Source: Promethearchaeota archaeon (GTDB taxonomy: Archaea > Asgardarchaeota > Lokiarchaeia > Sigyniarchaeales > SOKP01). Taken from it: DNA of 52,380 bases. This document shows positions 7,640 to 36,566 of this stretch, piece after piece. The notes under the pieces are model-generated. The model did no database searches. It worked only from the letters and a program-made list of their open reading frames with translations, and had not been told where the DNA came from. Position numbers and translations under genes: made by a program. The first letter of the stretch is position 1. Each line of letters starts with the position of its first letter. The DNA lies in contig JBHLNF010000017.1 of NCBI GenBank assembly GCA_048937405.1, forward strand, positions 1-52,380, given 5' to 3'.

Positions 7640-7657
7640 ATATTGAGTTGATAAAAA

Positions 7658-8164
7658 ATTAAAATAGCAATTTTAGCTACAGATGGATATGAAGATCTTG
7701 AACTTCATTATCCGCGTATTAGATTGAATGAAGCAGGGTATGATACAGAACTAATTAGTTTGTATAAAAGAGAAATCAAAGGGAAACACGGATATCCAAT
7801 CATACCTGATAAATTAATAAGGGACGCAAATCCCAATGATTATGATGGTGTAATAATCCCTGGTGGGACAAAAAATCCCGATTATCTTAGAAGAGATGAA
7901 AATGTTCTTGAATTTGTTTCACAAATCAATGAACAGGGAAAACTAGTAGCTGCTATTTGTCATGCTGGTTGGGTTTTAATTTCTGCTAAAATTCTTAAAG
8001 GACGTAAAGCTACTAGTTATTTTGCAATAAAGGATGATATGGTGAATGCAGGTGTTCGCTTCGAAGATGCTTCAGTAGTTATTGACAATAATTTAATTAC
8101 TTCACGGATACCAAGTGATCTACCTGATTTTATGAAAGCAGTTTTAAATTTTCTGAAAAAATAA
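7658..8164 (+). CDS. pfpI: PfpI/DJ-1 family (type 1 glutamine amidotransferase-like) protease/deglycase
   Basis: YDGVIIPGG, AAICHAG (catalytic Cys-His), NLITSR.P.DL. The conserved N-terminus KIAILATDGYEDLEL lies in frame upstream of the track's TTG (7724), back to ATT at 7658; an in-frame TAA sits at 7652. Confidence 0.9.
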   Translation: MKIAILATDGYEDLELHYPRIRLNEAGYDTELISLYKREIKGKHGYPIIPDKLIRDANPNDYDGVIIPGGTKNPDYLRRDENVLEFVSQINEQGKLVAAICHAGWVLISAKILKGRKATSYFAIKDDMVNAGVRFEDASVVIDNNLITSRIPSDLPDFMKAVLNFLKK

Positions 8165-8194
8165 CAAGTATATTTTAGATAAAATTTAGATCAT

Positions 8195-9418
8195 TTAATG
8201 TAGAGTTTTAACCCTTTGAATATTTTCTTTAAGAAGTTCTAAAAATACATTAATTTCTTCAATCTGTCTATTTAATAATTCAATTTTTTTATCAATAATT
8301 CCTTGATCTGACACTTCTTCTTTTTGTAACTCTTTTCTTATAATAATGTATGATCTTATTTGATTTAAGATAGTTTGCATTCTTTTAATCTTAATTTGAT
8401 ATATTTTTTTATATTTTTTTAAATCTTCAAGCCTTATTTCAATTGTTTCAATATGAGTAAAACATCTATCTGTATCTTCCTCTTTCTTTAAATCTTTTAA
8501 AGTTAATGTAATCTCTTTTAAATAAGCCATTACTAAATTTTTTTGTTCCTCATCTATTGATTCTAATTTAAAATGGGAATCATCTGAAATTTCATCCACA
8601 ATTTCTGAAGTATATTTAATGTGAATTCTATTCGATTGAATTCTTGTTATGGAGTCTAATTCGGTAGATTTATCTGATAATTCAGATTCATCAAAATCTG
8701 TTATTAATTCTAAATTATCTAACTCTAATTGAGTAATTAAAGGAGAAAATTTAACTTGAAGCTGTTTCTTTCCAAAATACTCATCATTTTGTCGAAGGAT
8801 TTGAGTATACATTTGGATAATTTCTGGACCAATTGGTGCAAATAAGACACCCCCATTCTGGTCGAGTTGATTTAATAAAGAATTTATTCTTGATTGTTCA
8901 ATAGCTCCAGTTACCAAGATTTTTTGCCAAGGACTTAATTCAGGCATTCCATTAAGAGGATTCTTAACGATGATTGATATGTTATCATCAAAATCTAATT
9001 TTTTTAAATTATCAGAAGTAATTTTAGCGATTTCAGAATTTGCCTCAAGAATTATTATTTCACCTTTAGGTGCTAATTTATGTGCTAAAGCTGCAATATA
9101 TCCGCTTTTAGCCCCCAATATTAGTAGATCATCATCTTCCGTCAGAGAAAGGCCTTGAAGCATTATACTTATCATATGTGGGGCAGAAATCGTTCTATAG
9201 CTGTTAGGATTTTGCTCATCATAATAAAATAAATTTGGTACATCCTCATAAAGTCGTACTACTTTAAGAAATCTATCTGGAATGAATTGTTCTAAGGGAA
9301 CATCCATAAATGCTTTTATTAAACGCTTATCCTTTAAGATTTCATTTACAATTAAGGAGTCTATTAAATGCTTTTTCTTTACTTTAAGTTTATCCTTGAA
9401 TCTTTCGTTTCTGTCCAA
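8195..9418 (-). CDS. pcm: Protein-L-isoaspartate O-methyltransferase-like domain fused to a C-terminal coiled-coil region
   Basis: AFMDVP...F, TISAPHM, GY.AAL, KILVTGA, QL..GG.L.APIG and VKFSPL. The SAM motif is degenerate (LILGAKSGY); long acidic/coiled-coil tail. Confidence 0.75.
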   Translation of the reverse strand: MDRNERFKDKLKVKKKHLIDSLIVNEILKDKRLIKAFMDVPLEQFIPDRFLKVVRLYEDVPNLFYYDEQNPNSYRTISAPHMISIMLQGLSLTEDDDLLILGAKSGYIAALAHKLAPKGEIIILEANSEIAKITSDNLKKLDFDDNISIIVKNPLNGMPELSPWQKILVTGAIEQSRINSLLNQLDQNGGVLFAPIGPEIIQMYTQILRQNDEYFGKKQLQVKFSPLITQLELDNLELITDFDESELSDKSTELDSITRIQSNRIHIKYTSEIVDEISDDSHFKLESIDEEQKNLVMAYLKEITLTLKDLKKEEDTDRCFTHIETIEIRLEDLKKYKKIYQIKIKRMQTILNQIRSYIIIRKELQKEEVSDQGIIDKKIELLNRQIEEINVFLELLKENIQRVKTLH

Positions 9419-9517
9419 ATTATATCAGTCACTTTTTATATTAAAAAAATAATATAAAAACAAATTATTAAATTTTGTTTTAATAATTCTAAACTGTTCT
9501 AATCACAATATATTAAT

Positions 9518-34492: not shown

Positions 34493-34704
34493 ATATAAAA
34501 TTTGAGTTTTTTTTATTAATTATTATTTAATATTCAAATATTTAATATTTCATAAAACAAAAAATGTTAGTTAATAAGTTCTATTTGATATAATTAATTC
34601 TATTAATTTTTTAATAAATTGACAAAAAAAACATATATATTTTGCCACTATATTAGATTTAAAAAAGCATTTGAAAATTAATCAAAAAATAAAGGTGAAT
34701 TATT

Positions 34705-35193
34705 ATTCCAAGACGTTATTATGCTAAATCTAAGAAGACCTATGCAAAAGATCAAAGTTTTACTCAAGACCAGGTAGGAGAAGAAAAAGAACGTTATTTA
34801 ATCAGTATAGAATTAATGAGCTTAAAAACTTTAAAAGATTATGATATTATGGGATGGCGTGGAGAATTTTACTTTAAGGTAGACGGACCAAAGACTTTCA
34901 AAGCTCGATGGCCTAATAAGGGAACCATAAAACTACAAAAGAATCAAGAATTTACGTCAAAAGCGGATATGTCTCTCTGGAGTCAATTTAAAACAGTTCG
35001 AGTAGGTAAACCTGCTATACAGAAAATTAAAGTTATCTTGAGAGAACAGGATCACATGAAAAAGGATGAGACGATTGCTGAACAAGAATTTGAAATAAAA
35101 TTACCTTCGAAAACAGAATACGTTATTTTGCAAGACGAGAAAGAAAAAACAAAAGCAAAACTTCGAATCCAAGCAACAAGAACTAGATATTAA
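34705..35193 (+). CDS. C2-domain-like (Ca2+/phospholipid-binding) protein
   Basis: YLISIELMSLKTLKDYDIMGWRGEFYFKV...KIKVILREQDHMKKDETIA matches C2 strand and loop pattern. The first strand lies upstream of ATG 34816; the frame is open back to ATT codons at 34699-34705 after AGGTGA. Confidence 0.55.
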   Translation: MPRRYYAKSKKTYAKDQSFTQDQVGEEKERYLISIELMSLKTLKDYDIMGWRGEFYFKVDGPKTFKARWPNKGTIKLQKNQEFTSKADMSLWSQFKTVRVGKPAIQKIKVILREQDHMKKDETIAEQEFEIKLPSKTEYVILQDEKEKTKAKLRIQATRTRY

Positions 35194-35483
35194 GATATAA
35201 TTTTCTATTTCTCTTTTTTCTTTTTAAATTTGTTCTGATTGATGTTTTATTGTTGAACAACCATTATTTATTAAGGCATCTGTTTACTGGCATGACAATA
35301 ACGGATTTGAGTTTTCAGGGATAAGTTAAGGTGAATATAAACCAAAATCATTTAAATTCCAAATCTTTGTCAATTGAAATGAATAATAAGTGAATGATTT
35401 TTCATGATCCCATCGTTTAATATTTATAAATTACTTTAAGTATTAGATGAATATTATGAGAAAACTAAATAGAGGATGATAAA

Positions 35484-36566
35484 ATACCTGCAGTAAAACC
35501 TTCAGATGGTCCAGTTGCTGTAACTGGTGCTTCAGGCTATGTTGGTTCCCATGTGGTTATCGCTTTGATGAAACACGGATATACTATACATGCGTGTTTG
35601 AGAGATCCGAATAATCCCGATAAGACTGAACATTTATTGGCACTTAATAGTGGTGACTATACTGGTCATGTGGAACTTTTTACAGCTAATTTGCTCGAGA
35701 AAGGTAGCTACAACGAACCATTCGCTAATTGTTGTGCTGTATTACACGTTGGAACTCCAATGGGTTATGGTGGTCAGAATAGTCCTCGTCAGATATACGA
35801 GGGTGCTTTAAATGGCACTAAAAATGTCCTTGATTCAGTTCAGAGAGCTGGTACAGTAAAAAGGTTTGTATACACTAGCTCTTTTTCTGCTATATATCAC
35901 CCGACACGGTCTGGTTATGTATATACTGAAAAAGACTGGGCCTCAGATAATCGTGAGAATGATCCAAATTGGAGCGTAGATAGAATTGATATTGATGGCG
36001 ATATGTCCTATTCGATGGCAAAAGTCGAGGTCGAGCATATATCGAATCGTTTTGCTGAGGAAGATGGTCGCTTTGACGTCATTTCTGTATGTCCCATTGC
36101 GGTACTTGGCCCTCTTCTTTCCCCCATTCATGAACGAGTGGGTTCTTGGCAATGGTATCTTGGTCTTATGTTGGCAGGTAAACCATGTCAACAGAATTGG
36201 CAGTCTCTATGGAATATTGTCGATGTACGTGATGTTGCTGAATCACAAGCTCTTATAATTGAAAGTAATGTCTGTAAAAATGGATGGCGGTACATGTTAA
36301 GTGCAACAGATGAATCTGGAGAACTCGATGTGTTTCAACTTCAAGCACATTTACAAAAATTATTTCCTAATATTGATGTAGGTGGTGCTCCAGATGCAAT
36401 TAAATCAATCATTGAGAAGTATGGAAGCGTCTATCAATCACCTCTAGCTCATTGTGATAAGGCTCGTGAAGAATTAGGTCTTAAAACTCATTCTATCGAG
36501 AATACATTATACGAAACAGGGAGAACCATAATTGATCTTGGTTTAGTGAAACCAGCTTTAAAATAA
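35484..36566 (+). CDS. NAD(P)-dependent epimerase/dehydratase / aldehyde-reductase-type extended SDR
   Basis: VAVTGASGYVGSH Rossmann motif lies upstream of the track's GTG (35553); YTSS, YSMAK (YxxxK), VDVRDVA. Start inferred at ATA 35484. Confidence 0.88.
   Translation: MPAVKPSDGPVAVTGASGYVGSHVVIALMKHGYTIHACLRDPNNPDKTEHLLALNSGDYTGHVELFTANLLEKGSYNEPFANCCAVLHVGTPMGYGGQNSPRQIYEGALNGTKNVLDSVQRAGTVKRFVYTSSFSAIYHPTRSGYVYTEKDWASDNRENDPNWSVDRIDIDGDMSYSMAKVEVEHISNRFAEEDGRFDVISVCPIAVLGPLLSPIHERVGSWQWYLGLMLAGKPCQQNWQSLWNIVDVRDVAESQALIIESNVCKNGWRYMLSATDESGELDVFQLQAHLQKLFPNIDVGGAPDAIKSIIEKYGSVYQSPLAHCDKAREELGLKTHSIENTLYETGRTIIDLGLVKPALK

Follow-up and report, generated by a model that had tools for sequence, protein, structure and literature searches.

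Candidate near-cognate start codons behind Shine-Dalgarno motifs in a Promethearchaeota genome

Predicted start sites of four genes on one contig

We analyzed the whole of contig JBHLNF010000017.1, a window of 52,380 nucleotides (nt) from the Promethearchaeota archaeon assembly GCA_048937405.1, which represents an uncultured Asgard archaeon of the Loki type. The assembly is a metagenome-assembled genome (MAG) of 4.47 Mb in 29 contigs with 28.9% GC. We refer to it as G000, the window being its contig C5, and most congeners and outgroups named below carry codes of the same form, such as G001 and G038. Among the approximately 45 genes of the window are four with no in-frame ATG, GTG, or TTG ahead of the N-terminal sequence that their products require: a DJ-1/PfpI gene (pfpI), a gene for a C2-like protein, a short-chain dehydrogenase/reductase (SDR) gene, and a gene for a beta-helix protein. 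In all four, an ATT or ATA codon sits 3 to 6 nt 3′ of a Shine-Dalgarno (SD) motif resembling GGTGAT, and this codon differs from AUG at a single position and lies at a functional distance from the SD. The SD is exact for the beta-helix and C2-like genes, carries one mismatch for pfpI, and for the SDR gene shows a bulge of one base and a spacer of 3 nt. An earlier note on this DNA had read these codons as start sites, and all four were found at the positions it gave. Judged from the sequence, they are very probably genuine near-cognate initiation codons. When the predicted starts were set against orthologue N termini, homologous start codons could be found for pfpI, the C2-like gene, and the SDR gene.

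The pfpI gene (Pfam PF01965) lies on the forward strand and runs from the ATT at 7658 to 8164, giving 168 codons plus a stop. An in-frame TAA at 7652 to 7654 closes the frame upstream, and the first canonical codon, TTG at 7724, comes 22 codons 3′ of the ATT. The Pfam DJ-1_PfpI profile matches the product with an E value of 8.6e-56, and position 2 of the profile aligns to the residue directly after the ATT. The SD-like motif GAGTTGAT (7645 to 7652, forward strand) has one mismatch to GAGGTGAT and ends 5 nt before the ATT, a spacing that agrees with the genome consensus described below. ATT occupies the homologous codon in 4 of 12 species compared from the GTDB genus (G000, G001, G005, and G023), preceded by GAGTTGAT, GAGGTGAT, or AGGTGA. 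In G000, G001, and G005, the frame is closed by a stop one or two codons before the ATT; in G023, a GTG within the SD is in frame. An ATG two codons upstream of the ATT site is present in the remaining eight species. The flanking sequence varies among the ATT species, and the orthologue sites contain no homopolymer. The GAGTTGAT variant has a U·C mismatch in the middle of the SD helix and recurs before ATT starts at an unrelated gene (minus-strand open reading frame [ORF] 163573 to 164107 on contig C17 of G000) and at the pfpI locus of G001 (L002).

The C2-like gene provided the broadest comparison. Its predicted coding sequence runs on the forward strand from the ATT at 34705 to 35193 (162 codons plus a stop) and encodes a putative C2-fold protein conserved in Promethearchaeota. 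The SD AGGTGA (34693 to 34698, forward strand) is 6 nt before the ATT, and its own TGA, at 34696 to 34698, is the in-frame stop. The first canonical codon is the ATG at 34816, 37 codons 3′ of the ATT; it falls within strand 1 of an AlphaFold2 (AF2) model, and about 20 of residues 1 to 37 are invariant among 29 homologues. Across 66 species, the codon before the conserved PRRYYAK/SRRYYAK sequence is ATT in 32, ATG in 18, GTG in 5, TTG in 3, ACG in 3, CTG in 2, ATA in 2, and GTT in 1, and in the lone GTT species a GTG lies in frame four codons before it. Since otherwise only AUG and codons a single mismatch away from it occur here, at a fixed distance from the SD, this position is taken to be the start codon. 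The SD core GGTG precedes 39 of the 40 near-cognate starts versus 4 of the 18 ATG starts, from which we infer that a strong SD compensates for a weak start codon in this gene.

The AF2 model of the C2-like protein is a β-sandwich of seven strands, compared with eight in a C2 domain, with a mean predicted local distance difference test score (pLDDT) of 65.9 and a predicted template modeling score (pTM) of 0.60. Foldseek returned only eukaryotic C2 domains as its top PDB matches, all of them weak (E values of about 1e-4 and template modeling scores of 0.4 to 0.5), and no Pfam family matched the protein. Homologues number more than 300, nearly all from Promethearchaeota, and their N-terminal tail is basic and invariant (RRYYAKxKKTYAK).

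The SDR gene encodes a predicted NAD-dependent epimerase (Pfam Epimerase, E = 5.8e-20) of 360 codons plus a stop, from the ATA at 35484 to 36566 on the forward strand. Its frame opens at 35469, just after a TAA, and its first canonical codon, GTG at 35553, comes after the GxxGxxG NAD-binding motif; the Pfam match starts at residue 16 of the stop-to-stop frame. The SD-like motif GAGGATGAT (35472 to 35480, forward strand) lies 3 nt before the ATA. Among the closest relatives, the homologous codon is ATG in G002, G013, G004, and LW60_5 and TTG in H3M.118, and these orthologues carry a GGAGG-type SD before the ATG or TTG at the same site.

The fourth gene, on the minus strand (16733 to 18694), encodes a NosD-like β-helix surface protein with Pfam Beta_helix and NosD matches, which would begin (M)KSKNKKRSTIITLGILFLILNLVLVGI from the ATA at 18694. 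The SD GGTGAT (18706 to 18701, minus strand) lies 6 nt before this codon (7 nt when measured from GGTGA). The frame opens at 18727, just after a TAA, and the first canonical codon, GTG at 18625, falls within the N-terminal transmembrane segment, a signal anchor. The adjacent paralogue begins ATG-IKKKRSLTILIL, which the K/R-rich anchor read from the ATA resembles, and the best homologue, from G005, has its start at the matching register and reads TTG-KKNN..TLGIL. No orthologue of the gene was found in 53 genomes of the genus. Together, the SD register, the signal anchor, and the register of the G005 homologue support the predicted ATA start.

The two β-helix proteins are encoded in tandem on the minus strand (13741 to 16674 and 16733 to 18694), and both have membrane segments at the N and C termini. 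A C-terminal stretch is near-identical between them (...HLDKIWYTLDGGLTNITINSLTGTIDENIWDS...), which suggests that the pair arose by recent duplication or gene conversion. Many further β-helix paralogues are present in the other genomes, some of them (L039 and L042) without a canonical start before the anchor.

We then considered whether translation of these genes might instead begin at the first downstream ATG, GTG, or TTG, leaving the upstream in-frame part as an untranslated leader. This is what ab initio gene callers choose for the C2-like gene, where it yields a protein of 125 amino acids (aa). Against such a leader, the upstream parts are conserved as protein in every case, whether as position 2 of the PfpI profile, the GxxGxxG motif of the SDR, the anchor of the β-helix protein, or the 37 N-terminal residues of the C2-like protein, and some orthologues have an ATG exactly at the near-cognate position. 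We consider downstream initiation very unlikely.

Near-cognate codons across the genome and the genus

Unambiguous ATG starts in G000 have the SD consensus GGTGAT at −11 to −6. We searched ORFs of at least 120 codons in which the stretch reaching back to the in-frame stop was free of canonical codons, and tallied the codon 6 nt downstream of GGTGA. The canonical codons ATG, TTG, and GTG were found 17, 11, and 3 times, respectively, and the near-cognate codons ATT, ATA, ATC, and CTG 15, 13, 3, and 2 times. Composition-matched control codons were nearly absent (AAT, 1; TAT, 0; TTA, 0; TTT, 1). When the spacing after GGTGA was varied, ATT and ATA peaked at 6 to 7 nt, as ATG did, and the controls were flat. 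The earlier note had thought four cases among about 45 genes more than would be expected, and this abundance of near-cognates, with controls close to zero, bears it out. Four in about 45 is at the high end of the genome rate (binomial P = 0.012 for a rate of 2%, 0.05 for 3%, and 0.19 for 5%), and a scan of the window for further SD-led near-cognate candidates gave no clear case beyond the four.

At spacings of 6 to 7 nt there were 46 near-cognate events, some of them with recognizable N termini. They include the ribosomal proteins uS4, (ATA)GDPRRLKKK, and uL15, (ATT)TRKYPRKVRSMRGRRTHGYG, as well as small GTPases, response regulators, and UspA; a ferredoxin-domain protein and an AN1 zinc-finger protein appear to start at CTG. 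The uS4 codon is ATA in G000 and ATG in four relatives. A Pfam Ribosomal_S4 search of the relatives gave four loci in all. Seven near-cognate events had an orthologue in an 800-kb sample of G023; the homologous codon was near-cognate in five and ATG in one, and one could not be aligned. Four paralogues with the N terminus SIDWxKxEExPEKK (G000 C28+527630, C11-12126, C16+16541, and C16+15658) all have ATT behind GGTGA, and the weak start would therefore have been inherited through gene duplication.

A wider census accepted any exact 5-mer of GGAGGTGAT at an aligned spacing of 5 to 8, with the next canonical codon at least four codons away. In G000, 91 of 5,098 near-cognate codons had such an SD, compared with 33 of 12,042 control codons (odds ratio, 6.6; p = 1e-23). 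Since the same SD criterion picked out 226 first-canonical starts, near-cognates make up 29% of the exact-SD-led starts. AAG and AGG were near background as SD-led codons. The near-cognate excess comes to about 77 genes, or at least 2 to 3% of long ORFs, a rough lower bound given that the census finds SD-led cases only. Because two of the four cases in the window have imperfect SDs and escape the census, the true share is probably nearer 5% of genes. Two other approaches were set aside. A position weight matrix at a fixed upstream position was too weak, as an SD precedes only about one gene in four, and exact 5-mer matching was used in its place. An upstream-alignment comparison of G023 with G000 flagged 131 of 516 pairs, a figure inflated by antisense shadow ORFs and conserved 5′ leaders and discarded as an estimate; a stricter codon-to-codon version left a handful of clean ATG-to-near-cognate pairs.

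To determine how far this extends beyond G000, we ran the same census on 800-kb samples of G023, from the same genus, and of G032 and G038, from the sister family. Enrichment over controls was 6.6-fold in G000, as given above, and 3.3-fold in G023 (p = 0.03); it was 1.2-fold in G032 and 2.4-fold in G038, neither of them significant. SD-led ATT accounted for 0 of 328 candidate codons in G032 versus 56 of 2,425 in G000 (p = 0.001). Convincing single cases nevertheless occur in the outgroups, such as the ATA of an FtsX-type permease gene in G032. By these sequence counts, the near-cognate trait is concentrated in this genus and is not uniform across the order. The earlier note had supposed that relaxed start-codon selection is a trait of the lineage, and the counts support this in part: near-cognates occur genome-wide, are shared within the genus and mostly conserved between its species, and are much weaker in the two sister-family genomes.

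Initiation machinery and the aIF1 gene

The note had also suggested inspecting the 16S anti-SD and the sequence of aIF1. The 16S rRNA gene is absent from the G000 MAG, and we took its 3′ end from the congener G023, where it reads GGATCACCTCC, a canonical anti-SD complementary to the GGTGAT motif. The initiator tRNA gene is on the minus strand of contig C3 of G000 (approximately 10337 to 10510 in reverse-strand coordinates). Its product is canonical, with an A1:U72 pair, a GGG/CCC anticodon stem, and the anticodon CAU. Three interruptions split the gene, one following the anticodon loop, one within the variable region, and one within the T loop. Genome-wide, only about 23 tRNAs were detected; the initiator escaped both Aragorn and the Rfam tRNA model and was located by motif. 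We found no initiator tRNA with an anticodon matching AUU or AUA, in a tRNA census that is incomplete owing to introns.

The aIF1 gene of G000 (contig C29, 21980 to 22300, minus strand; L057/L058) has no ATG, GTG, or TTG before the codons for its CxxC zinc knuckle. The stop-to-stop frame encodes 107 aa with a CxxC...CxC zinc knuckle, and residues 7 to 105 align to Methanocaldococcus jannaschii aIF1 (4MO0) with an E value of 5.7e-24. An ATT lies two codons after an in-frame TAA and behind a near-invariant AAGGTTGTGATAA. This ATT is present in 22 of 22 congeners; one to three codons upstream, a stop closes the frame. The codons between the stop and the ATT vary nonsynonymously, and those after the ATT vary synonymously. 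Because the start codon of the C2-like gene changed several times in the same genomes, the invariance of the aIF1 ATT looks like the product of selection. In the sister family, aIF1 starts at TTG, GTG, or ATA, never at ATG. In the outgroup genus g5 (L081 and L085), an ATG or TTG that is out of frame precedes an A-run in the aIF1 gene (ATGAAAAAACATACC), and the in-frame codon homologous to the TTG or GTG start of other genera is ATA; g5 aIF1 either starts at this ATA or uses a +1 shift. Across the order (L058 to L087), the basic loop 1 of aIF1 has the sequence RKWGR.

These observations bear on the possibility of special decoding, in which the near-cognate codons would be served by an additional initiator tRNA bearing an altered anticodon or bypassed by a programmed frameshift from a TTG, ATG, or GTG inside the SD, or the RNA would be edited to AUG. 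Out-of-frame canonical codons do overlap the SD at all four sites, the g5 aIF1 genes pair such codons with A-runs, and an extra tRNA could escape a search in which introns make detection poor. However, the GTG in GGTGA belongs to the SD itself, the pfpI orthologue sites have no slippery runs, and the single initiator tRNA found has the canonical CAU anticodon. The codons observed are moreover single-mismatch neighbors of AUG, just as one CAU anticodon predicts, and we regard special decoding as unnecessary and highly improbable.

We give equally little credence to the idea that the four sites reflect sequencing or assembly errors, either base errors at an ATG or homopolymer indels, or the loss of start codons in dying genes. 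The genome is a 29-contig MAG, out-of-frame canonical codons stand beside A-runs at two sites (TTG at 7648 before A6 and ATG at 35476 before A4), and the SDR and β-helix codons are known from G000 alone. For pfpI, though, the ATT recurs in three independent assemblies with different flanks and no homopolymer, and these orthologues rule out both an assembly error and a homopolymer frameshift there. The same pattern holds for the C2-like gene in 66 species and for aIF1 in 22, independent assemblies that exclude errors at these two genes as well, and a 29% share of exact-SD-led starts is far beyond error rates. All four ORFs are intact, with identities to their orthologues, where these exist, of 73 to 91%.

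Several points nevertheless weigh against near-cognate initiation as an account of all four genes and of the lineage. Two of the four SDs are imperfect, GAGTTGAT and, with its 3-nt spacer, GAGGATGAT. Each of the SDR and β-helix ATA codons has been seen in one MAG only, and either could still be due to a wrongly called base or to very recent loss of the start codon. The naive Fisher p value for the SD core of the C2-like gene (4e-9) is overstated, since the species compared are related, and the gene fraction carries the roughness already noted for the census. Finally, the RKWGR loop 1 of aIF1 does not differ between the genus and the outgroups, so inspection of this protein for a sign of relaxed stringency turned up no genus-specific change.

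A candidate mechanism, related systems, and annotation

We propose that the genus initiates near-cognate starts by ordinary means. The GGTGAT of the mRNA would pair with the 16S 3′ end (...GGAUCACCUCC) and so set a codon about 5 to 7 nt downstream in the P site. There, the ordinary CAU initiator Met-tRNA would accept one mismatch, at the third position for AUU, AUA, and AUC, at the first for CUG, and at the second for ACG, and the proteins would begin with Met. A weak codon would presumably lower output, with a strong SD compensating, and AT mutation pressure (29% GC) may drive ATG to ATA and ATT, changes that this lineage would tolerate. aIF1, with its own AUU start, might in turn set a permissive stringency by negative feedback, as IF3, the product of infC, does in bacteria: low aIF1 would raise its own synthesis from the invariant AUU. 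The full model, in which aIF1 feedback holds the genus at a permissive set-point and AUU, AUA, AUC, CUG, and ACG serve as regular, SD-compensated, tunable starts for several percent of genes, is a tentative proposal that we think somewhat less probable than its negation. The sole pointer to aIF1 as the cause is the invariant ATT of its own gene.

In Escherichia coli, infC (which encodes IF3) and pcnB start at AUU, and NCBI translation table 11 lists ATT, ATC, ATA, and CTG among the alternative initiators. The starts described here resemble bacterial SD-led noncanonical starts in that a strong SD stands a fixed distance before a near-cognate codon, which a normal initiator tRNA reads, in that certain genes conserve the weak codon, and in that the gene for the fidelity factor carries one. 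They differ in scale and in the factor concerned: a handful of genes in bacteria compared with at least 2 to 3% of genes here, ribosomal proteins included, and IF3 compared with an aIF1/eIF1-type factor in an archaeal host. The closest published parallel is a study of Staphylococcus aureus, which describes conserved noncanonical starts behind extended SD motifs (PMC13009471).

Eukaryotic near-cognate initiation offers a second parallel. The codon set is alike (CUG, GUG, UUG, ACG, AUU, AUA, and AUC, with AAG and AGG near background), and in both cases the start is proofread by a factor of the SUI1 family whose own mRNA is equipped with a weak initiation site. Work on Pyrococcus abyssi aIF1, citing Ivanov et al. 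(2010), reports that eIF1 autoregulates through an AUG in poor context (PMC6237735). Unlike in eukaryotes, where scanning and Kozak context operate, positioning here would be by SD pairing, and aIF1 autoregulation would be the archaeal analogue.

For archaea, reviews of initiation give AUG, GUG, and UUG only (PMC7531240; PMC4705826), and Prometheoarchaeum is reported to have few SDs (PMC7531240). The P. abyssi work discusses autoregulation of eIF1 by poor context and gives no archaeal non-AUG case (PMC6237735), and our full-text literature searches turned up no account of initiation at AUU or AUA in Asgard archaea. The aIF1 described here belongs to the same family of start-codon proofreaders as those of P. 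abyssi and M. jannaschii (PDB 4MO0 and 5ZCY; PMC6237735). It has W in loop 1 (RKWGR), whereas the proteins studied have Y or F, which stabilize the 30S:mRNA complex, and its gene differs from those studied in lacking a canonical start ahead of the zinc knuckle.

A lineage with about 30% near-cognates among its strong-SD starts and an AUU-started aIF1 is a natural system for the tuning of aIF1/eIF1 proofreading. Turnover of the C2-like start, coupled to SD strength across 66 species, is likewise a tractable case of compensatory evolution. If the permissive set-point is real, bacterial-style SD positioning and eukaryote-style near-cognates would coexist in close relatives of the eukaryotic ancestor.

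There are also consequences for annotation. Gene callers limited to ATG, GTG, and TTG would truncate or misplace a few percent of the proteins in these Asgard genomes, and the proteins affected include lineage-specific, eukaryote-like folds that are studied for eukaryogenesis. The NCBI record of this contig gives the C2-like protein as 125 aa from the ATG at 34816, compared with 162 aa from the ATT. The 125-aa form recurs in at least eight other records, including that of Loki_b32 (TKJ22053.1) and entries from JGI, ENA, and Logan, and in these public records the putative C2-fold protein loses its mostly invariant N-terminal 37 residues. The 162-aa form has been deposited only for the species with an ATG at the true site. 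Other callers start at a GTG or TTG that is in frame within the SD, or take the first ATT following the stop. The earlier note had expected standard annotation to truncate such proteins systematically. This holds for the C2-like protein and fails for the SDR, so that truncation is common, not universal: the SDR is deposited at its full 360 aa from the ATA, read as M (MPAVKPSDG), and homology-guided annotation therefore rescues some genes.

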